A stretch of 64,000 nt of DNA from a virus, in IMG/VR virus record IMGVR_UViG_3300034072_000373, positions 1-64,000 of that record; one strand, written 5' to 3'. The stretch's first letter is position 1; every line of letters begins with the position of its first letter. The translations under genes and the position numbers were made by a program. This document shows, in pieces, positions 25,906 to 62,997 of the stretch. The notes under the pieces were generated by a model. That model searched no databases and was not told where the DNA came from. It saw nothing but the letters and a program-made list of their open reading frames with translations.

Positions 25906-25943
25906 ATGCTATGTGAGGTCAAAATCACCTAAAGGTATTGTGT

Positions 25944-28900
25944 ATGGCAAACCCCTCTTCCACCATTATGAATGAGTATCTGTCTAAGGCTAAGCAAACA
26001 GGTGTTGCTAATGCCACTGCACAGAAGAAGCAGACTATGGCTGCTCAAGCATCTGTAAATGATGATGCTCTTTACCGTATTGCTTCTGCTCAAAGTAATG
26101 GCACTGGCAATTCCATGGAAGGTTACGAACGTGACCTTAGAACCATGGGAACCTTTGATCTAATCGGTAAGTATGGTTCGGGGATTGTTGGTGATCTGTC
26201 ACGGCTAGAAAATGCTAGAGAGCGTTATCGTGGTGATGAGTCATCCCAGCGTGGTTTTGGTGATGTAGTTGGGGATGCTGCTATTGGTGTGCCCACTGCA
26301 TTTGCATCTGGTATCCATTCAATTGCAAATTTGATCGAAGCCCCATTTGCTCCAGAGACTGCTGCAAGAGATGCGTTGGCAAATGCTAAGTTTGGTGAAT
26401 GGGCTAACTCATTCCAGAGTGATGCACTCAATCAGCGTAGACGTGCTGCTGGTGCCGATCTCCAAAATACTCAAGCAGATAATAAGGCTGCACAGGAAAG
26501 AGGTGAGATTAACTCGCTAGAGCGTATGGGCAGAGATGCCTATGATGCTGCTGCACGTTATCTGGATGATGGTGCGCTTACATCAGACGTTGTTGCTCAG
26601 GGTGTTGGTTCACTCTTTATTGGTGGTCCAATGATTAAGGGCTTCAGTAAGGTTGGTCAGGGTATCCTGAAAGCTGCTGGCCGTGGTGAATCTGTCCTAG
26701 CTGGTAGGGTTGTTAATGCTGCTGCTGGTTCACTAGGTGTAGGCACACAGGAAGCTGGTGGTGCTTACGATCAGACTGTTCAGGCTGCTATGGAAAGAAT
26801 GGCAGATAGAACTGATCTCACTGAAGAACAGAAGCTGGAACTAGCTAATAAGGCTGGTCTGGAAGCTGCTGCTATTCAGGGAACTGTTGCTGCTGGGATT
26901 GGTCTAATTCCCGGCATGACTAACCTTGAACGTGCTCCACTTGCTCTTCGTGGTTCAGTCCGCAATTCAGTCAAAGCTATTCTGGGTGAGACTCTTGAAG
27001 AAGCTACTCAATCAACTTCAGGTCAGTTGGCTCAGAATCGTGCTATCCGTGATGTGGTTGATCCAAATCAGGATATGCTTGAAGGTGTGGGTGAACAGAC
27101 TGCTCTCGGTGCAATTGGTGGCTTTGGTTCTGCTGGTATGGTTCAGGCTCCAAGCCTTGCAGCTAATACTGCAATGGCTCCTGTCCGTGCTATCATGGCT
27201 AAGGGTGCTGAAATCAATTCACGTAGGGAAGCTGCACAGGTTCAGGAATTCTCCAATAATGTAGAAACTGTTCGTGCTGCTGGTCCTGTGAATATGGATG
27301 CAGTTAACACTGCCATTGATAACTCTGATCTTGATCCAGAGATTAAGAACACTGCTCGTGCTCAGATTGATGGGATGATGCAGCGTGCTTCATACACCCC
27401 TGAACAAACACGCAATTATTCTCCAGAACTTCAATCATATCTGGAAGATTCAATTGATAAGTTTGATGCTCTCGACACTGCTATGGCAATTGTGGAAGAT
27501 TCTGACTTCACAAATGCACAGCGTCTGGAAGCAGGTGCTTATATCGCACAAACTGTTCTTCAGAATAATTCTCAGATCAAAGCTGATCTAGATGAAGCAA
27601 TTGCTGCTATTCATGAGGATGACCCTGAATTTGATAAGCTCATTGAATACAATGATCTTATGGATAAGATGGGTAGCCATCCTATTGTTCAGCGCATGGT
27701 TCAGCAGTTTAGGGAACAGGTTGCGGCAGTCACCCCTGAACAGGTGAATGCTGAAGCTATGGCAACTCCTGAAGGTAAGCAGACTGCTAGTGCAGTAGCT
27801 ACTGCTGTGGCTTCTGATCCTGAAGCTGTAAGCCCAGAGGTTATCTCAACCATTTTGGAACATGATGAATCTGATCCTGAATTCTCACCAGTGAATCGTA
27901 AGATTCTGGAAGGTGCTCAGGCATATCATGATATGAAGGAAACTCTGCGTAAGAATGCAGAGCAGATTGCCATTCAGAATATCAATGCTGTCACTGACAA
28001 CATGATTAAGTCACGCTTTGAGGATAACCCACAGGAAGGTTCTCCTTTGGCTCTATCACTGCGTGACCATTACACCCGTTTCTATAATGCACTGATGGCC
28101 AATGATGATGTCTCTGCAAAGGATTACCTAGATAATCTAGGTTTCTTTGCTGCACACATGCAGAACAAGTTGGCCACTGTGAACTCAGCTATTGAGGACA
28201 ATGCTTATAGTGAAAAGCTGGCTAAGCCTTATATGGCAGTGGTTCCAGCCAGAACTGCTGCACAGCGTAAGTGGGTTCCATCCAATCTCAAGATTTGGAT
28301 GAATGGCAGAGCAAAGGACAGTGTGCGTCTGGCTAAGCGTATCCAGCTAGAAGCTCAGGCAATCACCAATACCTATAACAACCTTGTGGAGCAGAATCCT
28401 GAATTCAATCTTCCTACGATTGATGTAGGCACACTGAACCCTCTCTTTGATGGTTCAATTGATGAAGTCGTAAATCGGTATAAGGGTCAAAAGAATGTTC
28501 AAACGTCTACTTCTGACAGTAGCGGAAACGCTAATCCTCAGCGGACTCAACAGTCTGAAGGAACGTCAGTCACGCAAAGCAGCCGAGAAGGCACTGAAGA
28601 AAGCGGAAGCGAAACTTCAGGAACAGAATCCCGTGGTTCCAGAGTAACTCCTGAACAGGCACGGGGTATCTCTGACAGAGCACTACAGTCACGAATCACC
28701 AGTCTCGAATCAATGATCGAAGACAATAAGGCGACTGTGCAAGACAGAGCTACCCTTGCCGTTCTCCGTAAGGAGAATGCCAATCGTAATGCTGAAGCAA
28801 TGCAGCGTGAACGAGAGGAACAGGAAGCTGAAGCTAAGGCTAGAGCGACTGAATCAAATCAGGATCAAAAGCCTAAAACTCCAGAAGTCACTGATTCTTC

Positions 28901-31900
28901 AGAAGATAATTCTGAGGAAAGCACTGATGCGTCTGAAGAATCAAATGTGGATGAAGAAGTTGAGGAGCCAAATGCTCCTACCCTTCAGTCAGTTTACACT
29001 GATCTTCATGAAGGCTCTAACTTCCTGACTATGTTCAAGGCTAAGTTTAAGAAGAGCCGTATTGCAACGAACACTTCACCGCAGGCTTTTGTAGGTGATG
29101 CACTATTCGATAAGGAAAGTCTGAAGAAGGTTTCTGGAACCAATGCAAATGGTTATACCAAGAAGGTAGCTCAGGCTTATCACAATCTATTCCGTTCAAT
29201 GGGTGTTGTTCAGGATGCTCTGAACAGGCAGCTTGCTGCTGCCATGAAACAGAATCCCAACATGTTTAAGCGGGATGATAGATTCAACTTGGTTCAGGGT
29301 AAGGTTCTGAACTTCGTTGGTCCTGATGGTAAGTGGAATCCTCAGATCATTGAGAAGGCAATCATGGCTGCAATGCAGTTTGTGATTACCGGCAACAGTG
29401 TCCACTACAACAAGGATAAGGAAGATATTGCCAAGGCATTTGGTATGGACCCTTCCAATGTAACTCCTTGGATTGAAGGCGTAGTCAACAACACCATCAT
29501 GTATAATGATGCGGTCTATCAGCTATCACGTAAGATTGCTGATTACCTTGGTGTGTCTGTTGATCCTAATGCCCCAATGGGCATTGCCAACGGCATGATG
29601 GATGGTCTGGCTATTGAAGTGCTGAGAGCCTTTGAGACTGCTGGCTATATTGAATCTGGTATTCTCAAGACTGGTAAGAGCCAGCATGGTTATCTCGATT
29701 TCCGTGGCTTCACTCCCGGTAAGAAGACTAAGCTACAGAATGAGGCACGCCAGAGAATTAAGGATGTGTCTTCATATCCCAATGCAATGGATGACATTGT
29801 TCTGACTGAGAGAGACAATCCAGTCTCGATTGGTGAGCAGTTGGATCGTATGCCTAAGACTCGTCTGCGTCAGGATACTCCCCTTACTCGTGATGAGCAG
29901 CGGGCTGTTAGACTGATCCAGAATACTCCACTGTATGCCAATACAACTATGGCTAATCTGTATCAGAAGCTGGGCAAGGATAATCTTGTTCGTCTGTTTG
30001 GTTCACCAATTGCTGATCCAGCTAAGTTGAACAGGGAAGACCTACTCTCAAAGGAAGGCAAGAACCTCACTGTGATTTCTGCCTTTGATGCCTTTGAGAA
30101 GTATTTCTCCATGCTTCAGGAATATGCCAATGACACCAAGGATGCTCTGGGCAATGTTCCAATGTATTTTGGTTCAGAGATTACCTCAGTCGGTCGTCTG
30201 ATGATGATCGGTGAGCAGAACCCTGTTGCTGCTAAGATCATTCGTGAATTCCTCCTACCTACTAAGGCAACGGTGGATATGAATGATCCAGTCAATGAGC
30301 ATAATTACTATCTCATGATGGCTCAGGCTTTGGGTAAGAAGCTGGACAAGATGACTCCAGAACAGGCTGTTCAACAGGCTAAGGATACCCTGTTCTCTGA
30401 GGACATGGGTAATCTGCTGGAGACTCTTGAAACTCTGATGGGTGATGGTGAAGTCACTGTAGAGGCAATGAATGTCCTACAGGATAATATCAAATCGCCA
30501 TTCATGCTTCATGCTCTGACTGATTTCATTCGTTACAATCAGGCTAAGGCTGAAGGCAATCTTCAGAGATTCACCACCTCACTGTATCTGGAAGCTGATG
30601 GTAGAACCAATGGTCCTGCTGGTGCCCTGTTCCTGTATGGAACTGGTGCATTCACTTTGAACCAGCTTCGTGATTTCCAGAGAGTAGGTGTGTTCCCCGG
30701 TGATGCTGCTGGGACTGAAGCTGAGCCTAACTTCTCAGGTAAGCAGAAGATTGCTGATCTTTATGAACTAACTGCTGATCGCTTTACTAAGCGTCTTGGT
30801 TCACTGGTCGATGATATTCTGAATACTGCACGGGCTGCTAATCGTAAGGGTCAGATCACCGATAGATATGAGAACCAAATCCGTAACATGTTTGGTGCGG
30901 TGACTACGCTTATCCACGATACAGGTAATGGCATTGTCACCAATGCAAAAGGTAAGCTGGAGACTACTCGTGGTTCTGTGAAGAATCCTCTGACCAAGTT
31001 TATCTATGGTGCAGGTGAAGCCTCAATCTCTGCTGGCATCACTCAGGATATTCTGGCCAGCTTCTATGAGGCAGTTTCAGAACATCTGACCACAGGCAGC
31101 AATCCAGTAGCTTTTGCTAACATGCAGAATCTCATTGGACACTTGGTTCATAATAAGCTGGGGACTCGTAAGTCTGATGGTGTGAGCTTTGTTTTTGACA
31201 AGCAGAACACCGATTTCTCATTCCCTGCTGATGAAGCTGGTTGGAGAAACTTCAAGTTTACTTCTGAACAGGTCAACACAATCAATGCCAATGTCAGAGC
31301 AATGTATGTGAATCCTATGGTTCGTTCCATCAATTCAGTGATGGTCGATACTCTGGGAACCACTGGTCTGCTTATCGCAGCTTCCAACATGCAGAATGAA
31401 CTGTATGCAAAGCTGATGGATGAAGCGATCAAGAATGCTTTGAAGGAAAAGAAGCGTGCTGATCCTAAATTCCAGAACCATCACTTCCTGTCAGAGAATG
31501 AACTGAAGAAGATCAAGAATTCACTCAATTGGGTTAAGCCCCAGATTGATGAGAATCTCCAGTCATTGAATCTCAGCCCTACTGAGGCTGGTCTGACTAT
31601 GGACAGTGGTAGTGAACTGAAGTTTGTGAGCAGCCTTGATGGCAATCACAATGTTCCCGGTCAGGTCAATCTTCCCGGAGCCATGGGTGTTAGAGCAGTG
31701 CCTCTGACCACCATTAACTTTGGTGATGCCAGAATGGTAATCAATGCTTTCATGAAGGGTATTGAAAAGGTTCTGGCTGTCTATGACGGTATGCACATGT
31801 CACTGGATCGTATCCCTGTGGATTCGGTCAAGTATAATGAAGCTGTCAGTGAAGCATGGGACTTCAATGCTCTGAAGGTTTTCACTGAGCAGTTTGAAGG

Positions 31901-34900
31901 TATGGTTAAGAACCTGTCACCTGAAATGCTGGCTGATATGGCATCAGATGAAAATACTCCTGAAAGCATTCTGCGTGATTTGCAGAGAGCTTCACGGGAG
32001 ATTGATGCTCGTCAGTATGCACTTAATCAGGTTGCACTATCTGTAGACCAGATGGCTGCTACTGGTTCATCATTCACCAAGAACATGGATAAGACCGCTG
32101 TTGATGAACAGCAGACTTTTCAGATGCTGAATGATGCCTATGATGAATTCATGGCAAAGCAGGAGCCAAAGGAAGTATCTAACTTTGAGCTTCCTTCACG
32201 TATGAAGGGTCTTGCTGTTGTCCATAAGGAATCTGGTGCATATGTAATTCGTGCTAATAAGCTGATTGAGAACATTGCAGCATTGACCACCGATAAGAAT
32301 CTTATCTCATTGGTTCAGTCACTGAAGCTGCCTAATAGCGAAGATGTAAAGATCATCTTTGGCTCAGCAGAAGCTCGTAGAAAATATGCTCCTGACCTAA
32401 TGGCTAAGAGCAAATCAACTACTCGTGGTCTGTCTGATCCAGCTACCAATCGTATTCTATTGAACACGCAGTCAATGGAAACACTGGTGCATGAACTTAT
32501 TCATGCTGCCACTTTCAATACTGTTTACAATAGCTTGAATGGTTCTGCTTCAGAAGAACAGATGGATGCTGTTGAACGTATTGAAGCTTTGATGGACCAG
32601 TTCATTAACATGGATTATGATACGACTGGTTGGTCAGATAAGGCTAAGACTGCATATCGTCGTCTAACCAACGTCATTAATAATGCACTGTCTCAGAATG
32701 AGAATGATCTCTTTGTTGATGAGATTCTCAATCGAGCAATTGCTGTTAATGAATTTATGGCTTGGACACTTTCCAATCAGGAGTTGGGATATGTTGCATC
32801 GAAGACGCAGGCTTCACCAGAGATTGTCCGCTGGACTCAAAAGGCTTGGAGAGCGGTTCAGCAATTCTTCCGTGCTGTTAAGTTCTGGGAACCCAGACAT
32901 GATATCCTTAGCAATCTGCGGTTTAACACTCAGATTCTGACTACAGAGACTGAGGCACCTTCGGTTGCTGATATCGCCAATGGTATCTCACTGGCTCATG
33001 AAGAGGCAGAAAGCCCTGTGCTGCGTAAGCTGTTCTCTCAGTTGAGCACTGCTCTTCAGGGTAGAAGAGAAGAAGCCAATGGCACTGCTAACGTAGAGAG
33101 CATTGGTATCGGTGGTAGGGTAGCAAATGACTTCAGTGCTGCATTCCCAATGGATGCTGAACAGAAGAATCAGTTTGCTGTAATGGTTACTGCTATGTCT
33201 CAGGGTATGGGCCTTGAAGGCAATGCCTTCGCTCGTATCGCTGATATCTATCAGACTGTTCTGGAGAAGCTGGATGTCACTGACTTCCTAGCAAATCCTG
33301 AATCAACCAACCCTGCTGAGATTGCTACGGCTACTGCAAAGTATAATGCTGTTATGGGTAACACCACTGCACTCACTGGTGCAGATGGAGTGTCAACCCG
33401 TATCCCAGCATTCTTGGCTCTGTCACTAATTGATCCAGAATTCAGAAAGGTTCTTGAGAAGCTCAAGACTCCTAAGAATAAGGATTGGAAGTTTGAAGGT
33501 GTTGGAGCCACTCTGAATGATCTTGGCTCAAGAGCTATGCAGGGTCTGAACAACTATGTTGCTCCTACCGGCAAAGCTACCAATGCTAAGGAAGCAGTGG
33601 ACAATCTCATTGGGCATATGACTCGTGATCTGTCCAAGGCACAGACTGCTGCTGAAATGGCATCACGTAAGGGTCATGGTTATCTGGACAAGGCGAATGA
33701 TTTCTTTGTCGAGAACATGGAACGTCTGAGCAAGATTGCTGATGAGAAGCTCTCACGGGTAATGGATACTACCCAGAATAAGTATGTGAATATCGCTGCT
33801 GGTGTCGGTAAGATGCTGACAGGCGTTATCAATGCTGAAGTGGGTGAAGCCAACTCAGAAAGCATGATGCAGATGATTAACCGTCTGAAAGGTTGGGATA
33901 CTATCCGTGCAGCCTATTCAGATATCGTTGGTAGAACCAAAACCAATGCTGGCGTCTATGATCTTATCAAGCTTGTGAAGTCAGTGGTTTCACAGGGCCG
34001 TGAGAAGTATCGTGAGCAGTTGCCCAAGATTATCAAGGGTAAGTTCAAGAAGGCTCCTACGGCTGCACAGTGGACTTCACTGTTCCGTGGTATTGCCAAG
34101 ACTGACATTGCTGCTCTTCGGAACCATATGACCCAGAGTGAAATGCTTGAGGTCATTGGTTCAGATGCAAATGTCCGTGCAGAGATTGCTAGACTGGAAG
34201 GTATCCTGCCTGACAATGTTCTGAAGGCTGACAGAATTGCTAAGGCTAAGCAGCTTGCCAATTTCATGAACACAGGTGTTTATGGCGATATGCTTCTGCG
34301 TAATGCAAAGGCTGTTGCTGATCTGAGAGGCATGAACAATCAGGCGAATTCAACTGTTGATGAAGTTCAGACAATTGATTCACTGATTTCCCTTTATGCT
34401 TTCCAGAGCATGGATGCTGCACATCGGAACACCATTCGTGAACTGATGACCAATGAGCCAGATGCTATGAAGTATCTGATTGCTCAGGTGCAGGGTGCTA
34501 GACAGGATGAATTGGCCAAGGTCACTGATGATGTCGCCTACAATGTTTATAAGGGCTATACCCCTTCTGAACAGCGTGAAGGCATCAGCTTGATCGTTGC
34601 TGAAGATACCGACCGTGCAAGACTGGAACGTCTGGGTTATGTCCGTAAGGGTGACTACAATGGCTCAAACAAGGAGACTCGTGCGAGCTTCAATACCAAG
34701 GGCTATTACTATTCACCTGTGACTGGTAACAACCCATTCACTCAGGGCATTTCACAGAATGTGAATGAGACTGTCGGCGGTGTTGATCCTATCCGTGGTT
34801 TCAGCTTTGGTGTTCGCCATGCTGGTATCATTATGGACCCACGTAAGGTTCAGCGGATTGCTAATAGCCCACGGACTGATCGTGGTAATGAGAGCCTGTC

Positions 34901-36311
34901 ACCCATCTTCAACAAGGATGGGGATATCATTGCCTTTGAGCGGACTATTGATCCTGCAATGGATGCACTGCTGGATCGTAGCACTGATCTTGCTGATATG
35001 CTGGGTGCATGGAGAGGTCGTCAGTTTGAGGAAGAGAATGCAATCGTCTTCAATACTGAGCTTCTGGGTGCTCTGAAGGATATGCACGATAGACGCCCTG
35101 CTAATAGCAACGGTGACTATATCAATATTCTGGATGATGCTGAGTTGGCTCGTGATCCAGTGTTGGCTGATGCTGTGAAGCTGCTGTCTCCTAGAATGAA
35201 GGCAGAAGCTGCTGAACTGTTCGGTGAGAACAATTTCATTCCTGTCCGTAAGGATATGCTGAATGATGTTGTTGGTTATCGTGCTGCATCTGTAGGTGAC
35301 TCATGGACTGGTGTTACCCGGTTCAATGAGAACACACAGAATGCAATCGTTAATCTGGCAACTGGTTTTCTGGGGAGGGATGCCTTCAAGAAACTGGTTC
35401 AGGCTGAACGGTTCGTGGAAGGTGTAGTGGGCGATATTCGTAAGACCATTGTGGTTCGGTCAGTGATCGTCCCATGGGGCAACTTTATCTCTAACATGGG
35501 TCAGCTACTTACCCGTGGTGTTCCACTACATGCTTTGATCTCTGGTGTTCCAAAGAAGCTGAATGAAATTCAGACCTACGCTAAGAGCCAGAGAGATCAT
35601 ATTCGTTATGAGTCTGATCTGCTGGCAGCTAAGGGTGCTAACGATACTAGAGGAATTGCTCAGGCTGAAGCTAAGCTAAAGACAATTGAGGATATGCAGA
35701 AGCGTCTAAGCATCTGGCCTCTAATTGCTGCTGGTGAGTTCAGTTCAATTGCTGAAGATTTGGATAAGGCTGATAATCCACTTGCCACTGGTAGATGGAT
35801 GGATTGGATTGAATCCAAGATTCCTCAGTCTGGTATGTTGAAGGAGCCACTGAAATACTATTGGCTGGCTTCAGATACCCCTCTGTTCAAAGCACTACAG
35901 ACTTCAGTGAACTATGGTGACTTTGTTGCAAAGGCTGTCCTGTATGACCATATGACCAAGACTAAGAAGATTTCAAAGGAAGATGCTCTTCCCAAGATTT
36001 CTGAAGAGTATGTCAATTACGATAAGGTTCGTGGTCGGGTTAGACAGAAGCTGGAGAATGTTGGCTTGCTCTGGTTCTGGAACTTCAAGCTTAGATCAAC
36101 AAAGGTTGCGCTAAGTATGATCCGAGAGAATCCAGTCCATGCCCTGTTCTATTCCTTGGTTCCAACTCCAGATATTCTTGGTGATATTGATTCACCACTT
36201 CTGGATAACATCTTCTATCAGGCAACCGATGGTTCGCTAGGATATTCGATTGGACCGGGGATGGCAGTTCAGGGATTCAATATGAATCCATGGAACAGTT
36301 TGATCTTCTAA
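25944..36311 (+). CDS. Virion-encapsidated RNA polymerase (N4 gp50-like, 3,455 aa)
   Basis: TSVGRLMM (TxxGR), YLEADGRTNGP (motif A), RGSVKNPLTKFIYG (motif B), LAVYDG (motif C); size; no Cys seen after Met 25944. Confidence 0.97.
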   Translation: MANPSSTIMNEYLSKAKQTGVANATAQKKQTMAAQASVNDDALYRIASAQSNGTGNSMEGYERDLRTMGTFDLIGKYGSGIVGDLSRLENARERYRGDESSQRGFGDVVGDAAIGVPTAFASGIHSIANLIEAPFAPETAARDALANAKFGEWANSFQSDALNQRRRAAGADLQNTQADNKAAQERGEINSLERMGRDAYDAAARYLDDGALTSDVVAQGVGSLFIGGPMIKGFSKVGQGILKAAGRGESVLAGRVVNAAAGSLGVGTQEAGGAYDQTVQAAMERMADRTDLTEEQKLELANKAGLEAAAIQGTVAAGIGLIPGMTNLERAPLALRGSVRNSVKAILGETLEEATQSTSGQLAQNRAIRDVVDPNQDMLEGVGEQTALGAIGGFGSAGMVQAPSLAANTAMAPVRAIMAKGAEINSRREAAQVQEFSNNVETVRAAGPVNMDAVNTAIDNSDLDPEIKNTARAQIDGMMQRASYTPEQTRNYSPELQSYLEDSIDKFDALDTAMAIVEDSDFTNAQRLEAGAYIAQTVLQNNSQIKADLDEAIAAIHEDDPEFDKLIEYNDLMDKMGSHPIVQRMVQQFREQVAAVTPEQVNAEAMATPEGKQTASAVATAVASDPEAVSPEVISTILEHDESDPEFSPVNRKILEGAQAYHDMKETLRKNAEQIAIQNINAVTDNMIKSRFEDNPQEGSPLALSLRDHYTRFYNALMANDDVSAKDYLDNLGFFAAHMQNKLATVNSAIEDNAYSEKLAKPYMAVVPARTAAQRKWVPSNLKIWMNGRAKDSVRLAKRIQLEAQAITNTYNNLVEQNPEFNLPTIDVGTLNPLFDGSIDEVVNRYKGQKNVQTSTSDSSGNANPQRTQQSEGTSVTQSSREGTEESGSETSGTESRGSRVTPEQARGISDRALQSRITSLESMIEDNKATVQDRATLAVLRKENANRNAEAMQREREEQEAEAKARATESNQDQKPKTPEVTDSSEDNSEESTDASEESNVDEEVEEPNAPTLQSVYTDLHEGSNFLTMFKAKFKKSRIATNTSPQAFVGDALFDKESLKKVSGTNANGYTKKVAQAYHNLFRSMGVVQDALNRQLAAAMKQNPNMFKRDDRFNLVQGKVLNFVGPDGKWNPQIIEKAIMAAMQFVITGNSVHYNKDKEDIAKAFGMDPSNVTPWIEGVVNNTIMYNDAVYQLSRKIADYLGVSVDPNAPMGIANGMMDGLAIEVLRAFETAGYIESGILKTGKSQHGYLDFRGFTPGKKTKLQNEARQRIKDVSSYPNAMDDIVLTERDNPVSIGEQLDRMPKTRLRQDTPLTRDEQRAVRLIQNTPLYANTTMANLYQKLGKDNLVRLFGSPIADPAKLNREDLLSKEGKNLTVISAFDAFEKYFSMLQEYANDTKDALGNVPMYFGSEITSVGRLMMIGEQNPVAAKIIREFLLPTKATVDMNDPVNEHNYYLMMAQALGKKLDKMTPEQAVQQAKDTLFSEDMGNLLETLETLMGDGEVTVEAMNVLQDNIKSPFMLHALTDFIRYNQAKAEGNLQRFTTSLYLEADGRTNGPAGALFLYGTGAFTLNQLRDFQRVGVFPGDAAGTEAEPNFSGKQKIADLYELTADRFTKRLGSLVDDILNTARAANRKGQITDRYENQIRNMFGAVTTLIHDTGNGIVTNAKGKLETTRGSVKNPLTKFIYGAGEASISAGITQDILASFYEAVSEHLTTGSNPVAFANMQNLIGHLVHNKLGTRKSDGVSFVFDKQNTDFSFPADEAGWRNFKFTSEQVNTINANVRAMYVNPMVRSINSVMVDTLGTTGLLIAASNMQNELYAKLMDEAIKNALKEKKRADPKFQNHHFLSENELKKIKNSLNWVKPQIDENLQSLNLSPTEAGLTMDSGSELKFVSSLDGNHNVPGQVNLPGAMGVRAVPLTTINFGDARMVINAFMKGIEKVLAVYDGMHMSLDRIPVDSVKYNEAVSEAWDFNALKVFTEQFEGMVKNLSPEMLADMASDENTPESILRDLQRASREIDARQYALNQVALSVDQMAATGSSFTKNMDKTAVDEQQTFQMLNDAYDEFMAKQEPKEVSNFELPSRMKGLAVVHKESGAYVIRANKLIENIAALTTDKNLISLVQSLKLPNSEDVKIIFGSAEARRKYAPDLMAKSKSTTRGLSDPATNRILLNTQSMETLVHELIHAATFNTVYNSLNGSASEEQMDAVERIEALMDQFINMDYDTTGWSDKAKTAYRRLTNVINNALSQNENDLFVDEILNRAIAVNEFMAWTLSNQELGYVASKTQASPEIVRWTQKAWRAVQQFFRAVKFWEPRHDILSNLRFNTQILTTETEAPSVADIANGISLAHEEAESPVLRKLFSQLSTALQGRREEANGTANVESIGIGGRVANDFSAAFPMDAEQKNQFAVMVTAMSQGMGLEGNAFARIADIYQTVLEKLDVTDFLANPESTNPAEIATATAKYNAVMGNTTALTGADGVSTRIPAFLALSLIDPEFRKVLEKLKTPKNKDWKFEGVGATLNDLGSRAMQGLNNYVAPTGKATNAKEAVDNLIGHMTRDLSKAQTAAEMASRKGHGYLDKANDFFVENMERLSKIADEKLSRVMDTTQNKYVNIAAGVGKMLTGVINAEVGEANSESMMQMINRLKGWDTIRAAYSDIVGRTKTNAGVYDLIKLVKSVVSQGREKYREQLPKIIKGKFKKAPTAAQWTSLFRGIAKTDIAALRNHMTQSEMLEVIGSDANVRAEIARLEGILPDNVLKADRIAKAKQLANFMNTGVYGDMLLRNAKAVADLRGMNNQANSTVDEVQTIDSLISLYAFQSMDAAHRNTIRELMTNEPDAMKYLIAQVQGARQDELAKVTDDVAYNVYKGYTPSEQREGISLIVAEDTDRARLERLGYVRKGDYNGSNKETRASFNTKGYYYSPVTGNNPFTQGISQNVNETVGGVDPIRGFSFGVRHAGIIMDPRKVQRIANSPRTDRGNESLSPIFNKDGDIIAFERTIDPAMDALLDRSTDLADMLGAWRGRQFEEENAIVFNTELLGALKDMHDRRPANSNGDYINILDDAELARDPVLADAVKLLSPRMKAEAAELFGENNFIPVRKDMLNDVVGYRAASVGDSWTGVTRFNENTQNAIVNLATGFLGRDAFKKLVQAERFVEGVVGDIRKTIVVRSVIVPWGNFISNMGQLLTRGVPLHALISGVPKKLNEIQTYAKSQRDHIRYESDLLAAKGANDTRGIAQAEAKLKTIEDMQKRLSIWPLIAAGEFSSIAEDLDKADNPLATGRWMDWIESKIPQSGMLKEPLKYYWLASDTPLFKALQTSVNYGDFVAKAVLYDHMTKTKKISKEDALPKISEEYVNYDKVRGRVRQKLENVGLLWFWNFKLRSTKVALSMIRENPVHALFYSLVPTPDILGDIDSPLLDNIFYQATDGSLGYSIGPGMAVQGFNMNPWNSLIF
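28495..28647 (+). CDS. Candidate overprinted 50-aa gene nested in the +1 frame of the vRNAP linker
   Basis: TAAGGG 8 nt before ATG; MFKRLLLTVAETLILSGLNSLKERQSRKAAEKALKKAEAKLQEQNPVVPE with phage-typical codons. Confidence 0.5.
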   Translation: MFKRLLLTVAETLILSGLNSLKERQSRKAAEKALKKAEAKLQEQNPVVPE

Positions 36312-50310: not shown

Positions 50311-52905
50311 CTAACCTCCTGTGGCTTCTGATACGATTTCAACTATCTCTTCTTCTGATGCTCCATTGGGTATGGTGACTTCCTTTGACCAGTCTGGAAA
50401 ACAGACAAAGAAGGTTCCACCCAGCTTCACATCAGGATGATATATATCAGGATGGTTCTGCCACCTAGCTGCATTAACCAAATGCTCATTGGTGAACATA
50501 ACCGCTTCAATATCATCTGGAATTAGGAAATAGTTTGCATCATGAATTTGAGCACAAATCTTGATCTTATGTTTCCACTTGGACTTTCGCACTTTACCCA
50601 TAAATTCTGAGCCAGCACGAGAGTTTAGTAGACACCAAGATTGTCCCAAAGCATTGCCTGCTGTTCTTCCTTCAGCTTGGGCTTGATAAGGTGTCTTGGA
50701 GGTTCCCCGTATTACCTGATGGAGCAACGGAGTTCTGACACGCAAACCAAATGCAGCAGTGATATAGCCCACCTTAGAGGCTTTATCTAGCTGAGTATCG
50801 ACCCATGTATCACTAACCACATATAGTTCGTGATAACGCTGTTCGATCAGCTTTGCTTTCTCTTCAGTAAAACCACAATTCGCCATGAGGGTAACGTATG
50901 TGCCTGCATATGTCAGAGCAAAGGTAGGAACCTTAGATTCCTGCCTCAAATGCTTATAAACATCTGCAATGCTATTGATGGACTTGACACAGTTTGGATC
51001 AATGCCAGTCATCTGATCCTTGAAGTAGGCATATGCACGGAGGCAATGGCCATCATACCCATCGGTATAGACCTTCAGCTTCATTGGGTCTTTGGTAGTC
51101 AGGGCAGAGATTCGATCCTCAAGAGAGTCGAAATCCAAGCCACAGAACAGCCAGCCCGGTGGAGCTTTGAAGCACTTCTTTAGAATCTTCGCATACTTGG
51201 TTCCTGTAGACGGTAGATTCTGTAGGTTAGGCTTACTGGAAGATAGTCTGCCTGATACAGTTCCACCGAGGTTGAAATTGCCGAATAGGTAATGCCAACC
51301 GTCTTTGCCTTTCTGAGCACCTTCCAATGCTGGAATGAATGTAGAGAGAATCTTCTCCACATCCTTATATGCTAACAGAGCATCAAGGAAATCTAGGATA
51401 TCCTGATTGTCTGTATGCTTCTTCAGAGACTTCAGGGTGTCAGCATCACAGCTTGGCGCTTTGCTATCTGTGTATGCAATGACAGGCAGTTGCAGGAACT
51501 CATAGAGAATTTCCTGAATCTGTGGCCCTGAATTGGGATTGAATGTCTCATTGAAGTCAGAGGCATAAACACGTTTCTTAACGTATTTCTTATTGGCCTT
51601 ATAGGCCAAGTTATGATTGAGAATGTCCCTGTATTCTTTGATGATAAGGGAATTCTGAATCTTGGTAAGAGCTTCGTCGTAGTCTTTAGTCAAGGCTACC
51701 TTAGCTCTCTTCACTTCTTCCATATCGACAGGCAGACCAGTCAACTGCATCTGAATAATGTCCACCATCGCTGGTTTGAAGACAGTATTGTAGATGTCGT
51801 TTTGCTGGTCATAGACCATGATGGGATGGTTCTTATTGAACACATACCATGTCGCTAGGCCGTCAGTGAGATTGTATGTGAGTAGTTGTCTCTTTGGTAT
51901 CTTTGTAATGTCATTGATTTCGTCTTGTGCGTAATTTCCTGCATATTCATGAGCCAATGTCTTCAGAGACAGATCATTCCCTGCACAGCTATTGGTTGCA
52001 AGATAGCTGATTAGCTTCGTGCAATCCCAATAGGTGAGTAGAATTTTCAGACCTTCATGCAGACCTTCTTGGTCAAGTAGGTCATCCATGAATAACTGAT
52101 AGATCAAAGCATAAGCATCGTAAGCGATGTTATGATAGATGATCGTCCGTTTCTGCTTATACATTGCTATAAGGAAGTCTTTTAGATACTTCCTGATGAT
52201 GAGGTTCTTACGATTTACACCGTAATCATCATCACCCTTCGCATGGTAATCAACAGGAAAGGCAATTCCTTCATGTTGGTTCCAGCAAAGAGTTACGGTT
52301 CCAATCCCACAAGACCAATGCTTCAGTGAGAAGCCTTCAATGTCCAGTGTGATAGCACCTTTCATAGCTAGGATATTATCCAGCCATGCTTTGATCTCCT
52401 TTGGAGAATCAGGATATGCAGCAACCTTAATGATGTCACTGCCCAAGGCTTTGTAATTACTTTCCATGGTTCCCTGAAGGGCATCCATGGCAACCTTGAT
52501 CTGGTGAGTCACCTTTTCAGGATTGTAAAACATAGCTTGGTAATTGGGGATGTAGAACACCTTTTGCTTACCAAACTGACTATCCACAGGATAACCAATA
52601 AATGGTTCTGCTTTGGACTGTTTGGTATATGCTTTGAAGTATTCCGAATCCCCACAGAGAATATACTCTACACCGCAATCATCTAATACATCTTGGAGTT
52701 CTTGCGTGATATACTCACGCATTTCCGCCATTGGTGTCTTCTTCTTGCCGGGGGCTTGGAACAGGTCAATGACTACGAAGTCTGACCTGTCCAGAGTTCG
52801 ATTAACAAAATATGCTTTTGCTATTTCCTCTGTTTTGATTTTGGGAACCAAGATGGCAACTTTGTATTTGCCATCCTCTACATCAGAGAAAATATCATAT
52901 CTCAT
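50311..52905 (-). CDS. DNA polymerase, family A (N4 gp39-like)
   Basis: LDIEG and YHNIAYD exonuclease motifs, TVSGRLSSSKPNLQNLP, LDFDSLE (A), RQESKVPTFALTY (B), QIHDA (C). Confidence 0.96.
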   Translation of the reverse strand: MRYDIFSDVEDGKYKVAILVPKIKTEEIAKAYFVNRTLDRSDFVVIDLFQAPGKKKTPMAEMREYITQELQDVLDDCGVEYILCGDSEYFKAYTKQSKAEPFIGYPVDSQFGKQKVFYIPNYQAMFYNPEKVTHQIKVAMDALQGTMESNYKALGSDIIKVAAYPDSPKEIKAWLDNILAMKGAITLDIEGFSLKHWSCGIGTVTLCWNQHEGIAFPVDYHAKGDDDYGVNRKNLIIRKYLKDFLIAMYKQKRTIIYHNIAYDAYALIYQLFMDDLLDQEGLHEGLKILLTYWDCTKLISYLATNSCAGNDLSLKTLAHEYAGNYAQDEINDITKIPKRQLLTYNLTDGLATWYVFNKNHPIMVYDQQNDIYNTVFKPAMVDIIQMQLTGLPVDMEEVKRAKVALTKDYDEALTKIQNSLIIKEYRDILNHNLAYKANKKYVKKRVYASDFNETFNPNSGPQIQEILYEFLQLPVIAYTDSKAPSCDADTLKSLKKHTDNQDILDFLDALLAYKDVEKILSTFIPALEGAQKGKDGWHYLFGNFNLGGTVSGRLSSSKPNLQNLPSTGTKYAKILKKCFKAPPGWLFCGLDFDSLEDRISALTTKDPMKLKVYTDGYDGHCLRAYAYFKDQMTGIDPNCVKSINSIADVYKHLRQESKVPTFALTYAGTYVTLMANCGFTEEKAKLIEQRYHELYVVSDTWVDTQLDKASKVGYITAAFGLRVRTPLLHQVIRGTSKTPYQAQAEGRTAGNALGQSWCLLNSRAGSEFMGKVRKSKWKHKIKICAQIHDANYFLIPDDIEAVMFTNEHLVNAARWQNHPDIYHPDVKLGGTFFVCFPDWSKEVTIPNGASEEEIVEIVSEATGG

Positions 52906-53393
52906 ACAATCAACCTCAATGCCGAGTAATATTCGATTAGCTCCATTCCTTGGACAATATCGTCAGGTATCGGTGGCTCAACGATAGAGCGTGATAGAGA
53001 CGATATTTCCTTGGGGAAGCAATCCACTATACAGTCAGGAGAGTAATCACGGAAGGCTTGATAATTCCCACAGTGTTTCAATCTGATGGATAGGGTCTGT
53101 TTGCAGACTTGATAATCTGCATCCAATCTCTCTTCTTTTTTGACGAGAAAGTGGAATTTTTCCGCCATTTCCTCTGGAACATGATGGAAAACTCTTTTAC
53201 CTCTAGGCATATTCTTGAGGGTATATCTATGACCCTCTGCAAAAATGGCACTGCACTCTAGTCCCAGATACCTCTTAGCTTCTGAGACATATCTGTCTGC
53301 ATCGTCCTTCAGCCCTTGCTGTTGGACGGAGAATAGCTTCTCTAATGCAGACAGAATGAATGCAGTGGACCATTGAGTTCTGATGACCTTCAT
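52902..53393 (-). CDS. N4 gp38-like protein
   Basis: Lies between helicase and polymerase; RD..PDC..SLSR..IEYYSALRLI. Confidence 0.7.
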   Translation of the reverse strand: MKVIRTQWSTAFILSALEKLFSVQQQGLKDDADRYVSEAKRYLGLECSAIFAEGHRYTLKNMPRGKRVFHHVPEEMAEKFHFLVKKEERLDADYQVCKQTLSIRLKHCGNYQAFRDYSPDCIVDCFPKEISSLSRSIVEPPIPDDIVQGMELIEYYSALRLIV

Positions 53394-62331: not shown

Positions 62332-62715
62332 TTAGATCAGAGTCAGGTGCTCCGCAGCACGTTCGAGCAGGAAATCCTGTTCATCGGCATCCAGAAATTC
62401 CCAACGGACACCGTGGGAATGGAATGCCAGTGCCTTGGCGTAACCCTGAATCTCACCCTGAAGGAAGCAGCCACATGGGCCTTCTTCTTCTTCAGGAGCT
62501 TCTTCGACTTCGGCTGGATATTCACCAGCCTGATCGACAGGAGCGGTAGCATATGCCGAATCAGTGTCAGGACCGCTGCCGATGATAGCAGCACCAAGCC
62601 CACCAAGGGCAGCATCACCGAACAGTTCCGAGATTGGAATGTGTCGCACGGTGATATTCTGATCGGCTGCAAGTTCGTTCAGCAGGGCTGCAATGAAATC
62701 TTCAGGCTTTTGCAT
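62332..62715 (-). CDS. Acidic hypothetical protein
   Basis: Start refined to MQKPEDF; the upstream part of the track ORF overlaps the next gene. Confidence 0.65.
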   Translation of the reverse strand: MQKPEDFIAALLNELAADQNITVRHIPISELFGDAALGGLGAAIIGSGPDTDSAYATAPVDQAGEYPAEVEEAPEEEEGPCGCFLQGEIQGYAKALAFHSHGVRWEFLDADEQDFLLERAAEHLTLI

Positions 62716-62752
62716 TTGAGTTCTCTCTGTTTGAGTTCCGAAGGACTGGGGA

Positions 62753-62950
62753 TCAGTCTTCGGTCTGTGCTTCGCCAGCCTTTGCGATGGCTGAACGGAC
62801 GGCACGATTGGTTTCCGCCACTTCGACCGCACCACCATTGGTGAGGTTGATACGGCTGCCACCGGCTTCAGTTGGGATGAAACCGACGATCTTGTCAACA
62901 GCCAGATTGACTTCTGCGCCGTTGTTCTTGAGACGAATGAATGCTGACAT
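62753..62950 (-). CDS. Small beta-rich protein, FlbD/SwrD-like pattern
   Basis: FIRL..NG..V.L..DKI..........I.L.NG....V.ET...V...I. Confidence 0.65.
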   Translation of the reverse strand: MSAFIRLKNNGAEVNLAVDKIVGFIPTEAGGSRINLTNGGAVEVAETNRAVRSAIAKAGEAQTED

Positions 62951-62997
62951 TGTTTGCACTTTCTATCAAAGGGTATGAAACACCCGAAAAACAAACG

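Follow-up and report, generated by a model that had tools for sequence, protein, structure and literature searches.

The virion RNA polymerase (vRNAP) gene of the phage analysed here contains, in its +1 frame, a complete small open reading frame (ORF) of 50 codons plus a TAA stop codon (positions 28495 to 28647, plus strand; product P0001), whose start and stop both lie inside the larger gene, as would be expected of an embedded gene. Judged from sequence comparison, there is about an even chance that this stretch is a real overprinted gene which is specific to this lineage and restricted to its clade.

If so, some of the ribosomes on the late vRNAP mRNA would start at AAGGG-N8-ATG (28482 to 28497), which is placed in an unusually unstructured, A-rich stretch. 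From there they would translate, as we infer, the +1 frame into a helical protein of 50 residues, superimposed on the disordered linker that leads from the N-terminal domain (NTD) to the RNA polymerase domain. The overprinted gene would be young and confined to the small clade of the phage, and the linker would accept the residues imposed by the second frame as long as it stays hydrophilic, which would lead to rare codons and low complexity in the polymerase frame.

Location of the reading frame in the polymerase gene

The window, by which we mean the whole stretch of 64,000 nucleotides that was analysed, comes from a 76-kb IMG/VR virus record which is complete according to CheckV. The vRNAP gene is its longest ORF (25938 to 36311, plus strand, 3457 codons). 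The product contains the Pfam domains vRNAP_dom_2, N4_RNAP_helical and vRNAP_dom, and N4-like virion RNA polymerases match it at 26–32% identity in tblastn searches. Among 1.8 billion representative proteins the best full-length relatives are about 30% identical, and the phage is a deep-branching schitovirus. The longest vRNAP ORF begins at a TTG codon at 25938 and the database protein P0003 (3455 residues) two codons later at an ATG at 25944; this ATG is likely to be the start of the gene, in agreement with the 3455-residue database entry.

The Pfam polymerase domains begin at residue 1320 of vRNAP. The first-pass annotation had placed the candidate just before the polymerase region, and this is indeed where it lies, namely at the start of the NTD-RNAP linker, which is linker 1 of the Schitoviridae. 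The corresponding low-complexity linker of N4 gp50 takes up residues 907–1006/1007 (PMC13434306 and PMC13492108). In the main frame the site consists of linker 1a (28497 to 28643, plus strand), 49 residues rich in S, T, G, E, Q and R that directly adjoin the conserved end of the NTD and are followed by a block of conserved motifs. In an alignment of 29 vRNAPs the same site is hypervariable, gapped and of low complexity in the 28 other proteins.

The conserved main-frame motif that follows, which we call block B (28648 to 28830, plus strand), extends from VTPEQA to QREREE, also contains the motif ATLAVL and stands within an otherwise hypervariable linker 1. Among the residues compared, 32 of 37 are identical in P0004, a protein of the near relative described below which starts at a Met at 28713, and a few vRNAPs with identities of only about 30% (P0005, P0052 and P0008) share parts of the block. 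Possibly block B serves the linker as a short functional element.

Start signals and chance expectation

The 50-codon ORF preceded by AAGGG-N8-ATG which had been noticed in the first-pass annotation is present. The Shine-Dalgarno-like (SD) sequence AAGGG is found at 28482 to 28486 (plus strand), 8 nt before the ATG and inside the vRNAP codons TAT AAG GGT (Y-K-G), and the ATG itself sits in AAT GTT (N-V). The duplex of AAGGG with the anti-SD sequence has an energy of -5.1 kcal/mol and fits the uAAGGr ribosome-binding site (RBS) that is usual in this phage. The start region folds at -6.5 kcal/mol, compared to -13.3 ± 3.9 kcal/mol for internal ATGs. The ORF has, with AAGGG-N8-ATG and an unstructured start, initiation signals of its own, which are not statistically distinctive genome-wide; an equally strong SD precedes 12% of the internal off-frame ATGs, and AAGG precedes 6% of them.

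A possible, if somewhat doubtful, alternative is that the ORF is a shadow of the vRNAP frame without any product, and that the similarity in the relative results from small numbers, from the style of substitution in linkers or from a younger patch of DNA. Several results speak for it. The SD and the ATG can be explained by the vRNAP frame, because Y-K-G and N-V are semi-conserved residues encoded by preferred codons. By chance, about 0.3–0.45 off-frame ATGs per genome are expected to combine an SD of this strength with an unstructured start and a length of 50 codons or more. When synonymous codons were resampled with the vRNAP residues kept the same, an ORF of at least 50 codons starting with ATG arose in 40–45% of the trials, so that the open frame by itself does not exceed chance. 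The +1 frame stays open because stops in it need codons of the type NTA or NTG (L, I, V, M) followed by a purine, and these are scarce in the linker. A second +1-frame ORF with a TTG start and 90 codons extends over the acidic linker 1b (28756 to 29028, plus strand) because the linker is T-poor, and it illustrates what a shadow ORF looks like; the linkers of KP8 and Axy04 hold similar ones. The candidate had also been set apart from the other, Leu-rich shadows in the gene, but the N-terminal half of P0001 is itself a Leu-rich shadow of TCN and ACN codons. The arguments that had originally been offered for the candidate, namely its open frame, its RBS and ATG, its favoured codons and its coextension with the unusual stretch of vRNAP, are thus either explained by the vRNAP frame or inaccurate.

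The candidate has the highest coding log-odds among the 107 off-frame ORFs scored in the window, a score that the unusual codons of vRNAP inflate. Its raw coding likelihood is no outlier among off-frame ORFs (z 2.7), and p values of 0.006–0.03 for the coding-likeness of the +1 frame are obtained under nulls in which local codon composition is preserved. A few places in the window that are certainly single-coded are equally ambiguous between frames.

How often such ambiguity occurs is illustrated by two +1-frame ORFs on the minus strand (51180 to 51362, 60 codons, and 53078 to 53251, 57 codons), both inside real genes and both with near-equal coding scores in the two frames. In a further place on the minus strand (62332 to 62994), an ORF in another frame (62753 to 62959) scores far better than the frame that was called; this is probably a wrong frame in a crude longest-ORF gene call and not an overlap.

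A near relative with two frame breaks

The only near relative is one Logan contig of 3610 nt, which is known from its gene calls P0154 (136 residues) and P0004 (425 residues). A blastn search for phage DNA matching 28200 to 28950 gave none, and no related loci with DNA were found in viral, metagenome or genome contig collections. Up to window position 28574, P0154 corresponds to the vRNAP frame (66% identity), while its last 23 residues match the +1 peptide of the window instead of vRNAP and end at the same stop; a frameshift-aware alignment maps a 1-nt deletion in the relative to 28575. P0004 ends in an out-of-frame tail as well, after a second 1-nt deletion near 30006, and stops where the +1 frame of the window stops. 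Out-of-frame tails of broken gene calls can therefore expose the alternative frame of a relative without its DNA.

The vRNAP of the relative thus carries two or more 1-nt deletions in a stretch of about 1.45 kb. We read these breaks as errors or decay because the second one (~30006) would destroy the polymerase domain; the contig is a poor, error-prone assembly or a decaying copy. If the deletion at 28575 were real, it would break the candidate ORF.

P0154, which reads the vRNAP frame to 28574 and then the +1 frame to the shared stop, has the form expected if the +1 frame were reached by frameshifting from the vRNAP frame, yielding a truncated NTD protein that ends in a helix of K, A and E. 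We consider such frameshifting very unlikely, since the second, similar deletion suggests that the breaks of the relative are errors or decay, no indel is seen at the site in four strains from wastewater and the subsurface, and inspection by eye revealed no canonical slippery motif at 28560 to 28580. That P0154 is a natural fusion protein was rejected in view of the two frame breaks in the contig, and an ancestral compensated frameshift across the whole linker was rejected as well, given that the first half of the ORF follows the vRNAP frame in the relative.

The sequence of the phage itself occurs in metagenome contigs of wastewater and subsurface runs. Contigs of four of these runs that extend across 27000 to 30500 show no indels. 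Among the 40 of 113 strain differences that were listed, too small a number for a test of frames, none falls within 28495 to 28647, and those listed at 28679, 28742 and 28745, just downstream of the ORF, are vRNAP wobble positions; gaps in coverage carry no weight here. Wastewater contigs of two runs (X4 and X7) diverge by 4–13% upstream of about 28374 (27000 to 28372) and by 0.7–2% downstream of it (28376 to 30500), which may reflect a recombination boundary near 28374, within the region of the N-terminal domain. A match in a further run (X15; 40 nt, 85%, 28571 to 28610) was set aside as probably stemming from another organism, its flanks being unrelated purine-rich sequence.

Substitution pattern over the linker

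In the overlap, the wobble base of a vRNAP codon is position 2 of a +1 codon, and position 1 of a vRNAP codon is the wobble base of the +1 frame. The second half of the ORF can be compared through the out-of-frame tail of P0154. Over the +1 codons 28576 to 28644 this tail aligns without gaps and with 15 of 23 residues identical (65%; BLASTP E 1e-5 for the pair). Eleven of these codons form a conserved island (K-x-AEKALKKA; 28576 to 28608, plus strand) that is near-identical in the relative, with 1 of 22 visible nucleotide positions changed, and the 13 codons after it have diverged (9 of 26 visible positions changed). The vRNAP wobble positions are changed at 4 of 23 in 28576 to 28644, while no fewer than 7 of the 24 vRNAP-frame codons in the overlap must be different in the relative; many of the codons are rare.

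Controls behave differently. In the out-of-frame tail at 30007, vRNAP wobble positions are changed at 4 of 7. Comparing the vRNAP segments of five schitoviruses in ten pairs, at 40–71% identity, gives wobble identities of 0.39–0.55. Among the control windows, which overlap and are mostly taken from folded regions, none of 2932 windows of 23 codons at a local identity of 0.6–0.8 reaches a wobble identity of 0.83, and only 1.7% of those at a local identity of 0.45–0.75 reach a +1 identity of 65%. A shadow leaves the 19 of 23 kept wobble positions unexplained, many of them in rare codons and despite the number of vRNAP codons that differ. A younger patch of DNA fits poorly with the divergence of the 13 codons that follow the island.

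In the first half of the linker, where the relative is read in the vRNAP frame, position 1 is changed in 13 of 27 vRNAP codons and position 2 in 4 of 27. The +1 residue of the window is still possible at 16 of 19 informative codons, compared to 57% and 54% elsewhere in the same pair. Nulls based on substitution models give p values of 0.007 or less for this half, and across 5162 control windows the compatibility with the +1 residue averages 0.49 ± 0.11, with none reaching 0.84. Exchanges among S, T, P and A and between G and R, which are found in hydrophilic linkers, also favour changes at position 1 and count against an overprinted gene; even so, a shadow needs a separate cause for the position-1 bias of this half. 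The vRNAP-frame residues of the relative would allow the candidate ATG and SD, and in this one relative the stop and the 23 codons before it are conserved. The length of linker 1a is equal in the phage of the window and in the relative, which we count in favour of an overprinted gene, whereas linker 1b is rich in indels and not alignable.

Taken together, the two halves fit the pattern of a coding frame, in which positions 1 and 2 of the +1 codons are held and position 3 is free; this joint reading comes from one genome pair, each half of which shows two of the three codon positions, and takes the halves to be alike. The only open frame that fits the register of the substitutions is the +1 sense frame. 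In the antisense frame directly opposite, the open part is limited to 28455 to 28550, and an antisense gene in the form of a 78-residue minus-strand ORF (28547 to 28783) was rejected, as it is rich in S, L and R and lies in a frame at odds with the pattern of substitutions. The earlier proposal that the second frame is under selection is partly supported in that the relative keeps the vRNAP wobble bases and changes those of the +1 frame; the support is independent of the arguments first given for the proposal, most of which are weak, but it is thin, being drawn from one relative.

Codon usage and constraints on the nucleotide sequence

As had been claimed, the vRNAP frame over the ORF is of low complexity and uses uncommon codons. 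It is rich in S, T, G, E and Q and has the lowest codon adaptation (CAI) in the whole gene (z -3.9). In detail, GGA is used for 4 of 6 Gly compared to 8% elsewhere in the vRNAP gene, ACG for 3 of 8 Thr compared to 6%, and CAA for 3 of 5 Gln compared to 12%; CGA, which makes up 3% elsewhere in the gene, is over-used, as are AGC and TCC. Low complexity alone was rejected as the cause of the low CAI, given that linker 1b, rich in S, E and D, has a normal one. A general cluster of rare codons at the domain boundary was rejected too, such a cluster in linker 1 being absent from five other schitoviruses.

The unusual codons had been said to cover exactly the stretch of the ORF. In a sliding CAI of 15 codons, however, the atypical tract reaches from about 28480 to 28760 (plus strand), which is about 110 nt beyond the stop and into the conserved block; its wobble positions are rich in A and C and poor in T, and its AT skew is 0.25–0.40. 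The rare codons downstream of the stop are explained by none of the models considered. Nor is the ORF written in particularly favoured codons, as had been assumed. Its CAI is 0.55, which is equalled or exceeded by 34% of the open off-frame windows, and it contains GCG three times and AAA four times. Both this ordinary off-frame CAI and a low-CAI tract that outreaches the ORF are points in favour of a shadow.

It is also conceivable, although we hold it to be unlikely, that it is the nucleotide sequence or the RNA, and not a second protein, that is under constraint, either through rare codons that slow translation after the NTD has emerged or through an RNA or DNA signal at about 28480 to 28760. 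The extent of the atypical tract, which spans linker 1a and block B and is longer than the ORF, would fit with this, as would the wobble positions kept by the relative and the folding of 28470 to 28770, which is mildly better than that of shuffled sequences (z -1.9). This z-score is not significant, however, and no Rfam match, promoter or terminator was found. The five other schitoviruses without a rare-codon cluster in linker 1 speak against it as well, and a signal in the nucleotides would not free position 1 of the vRNAP codons while holding positions 2 and 3.

Properties of the predicted product

No family or homologue of P0001 was found in Pfam, in phages (tblastn, E up to 10) or among 5.8 billion proteins, an absence that also agrees with a shadow. 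The ESM Atlas gave P0001 a best score of 0.84 but neither a family nor a neighbour, and a recognition score lower than real proteins typically reach. In the AlphaFold2 prediction residues 2–44 form a single helix with a mean pLDDT of 74, a result that does not discriminate between the explanations.

P0001 contains neither a Cys nor a lipoprotein signal and hence no lipobox of the kind found in o-spanins of the Rz1 type. A membrane span like that of a holin is not found either, the best 19-residue Kyte-Doolittle window scoring 1.05, below the usual 1.6, and containing Glu11. The role suggested in the first-pass annotation, that of an inhibitor, a chaperone or a guide for packaging, finds no backing in a family match or homologue, and the single predicted helix is the only structural result that bears on it. 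Our best guess, based on the predicted features of the sequence, is that P0001 would be a small amphipathic and possibly membrane-peripheral helix made together with the virion proteins. The more specific idea of a young de novo gene whose helix acts on vRNAP or on the ejection machinery, for instance in inactivation or in loading into the capsid, possibly with a frameshift route in addition that would provide the NTD with another, helical tail, is a long shot.

Significance and comparison with known systems

If the overprinted gene is real, it would be, as far as our searches and the literature show, the first gene reported inside the vRNAP gene of a schitovirus. It would cleanly illustrate how a disordered linker can give rise to a new protein in its second frame, the original frame being able to bear the cost, visible as rare codons and low complexity, and it would add an unannotated late protein to the N4-like phages, whose ejected polymerase makes them a subject of study. 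If it is not real, the case warns that T-poor hydrophilic linkers yield +1 ORFs with a plausible RBS by default.

In N4 the low-complexity linker 1 of gp50 is a flexible connector between the NTD and the polymerase that follows the same conserved block at the end of the NTD, and the linker of the window resembles it in all these respects. It differs from that of N4 in being split by a motif block (28648 to 28830) and in its first part, which is written in rare codons and is equally long in the relative. For N4 no second frame has been reported, and a conserved ORF at the corresponding spot is absent from N4, Axy04, Frozen, KP8 and G17.

Rz1 of phage lambda, a same-strand gene within Rz in the +1 frame, is an example of an embedded phage gene. 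Like Rz1, the ORF of P0001 is complete and small, has an RBS of its own and is entirely enclosed by a larger gene of the same strand, of which it occupies the +1 frame. Unlike Rz1, P0001 has no lipoprotein signal or Cys and is thus no spanin, its host gene encodes a virion RNA polymerase, and its conservation is seen in a single relative and at the level of sequence. If the ORF is real, the vRNAP gene is a new host gene for this known class of embedded phage genes.
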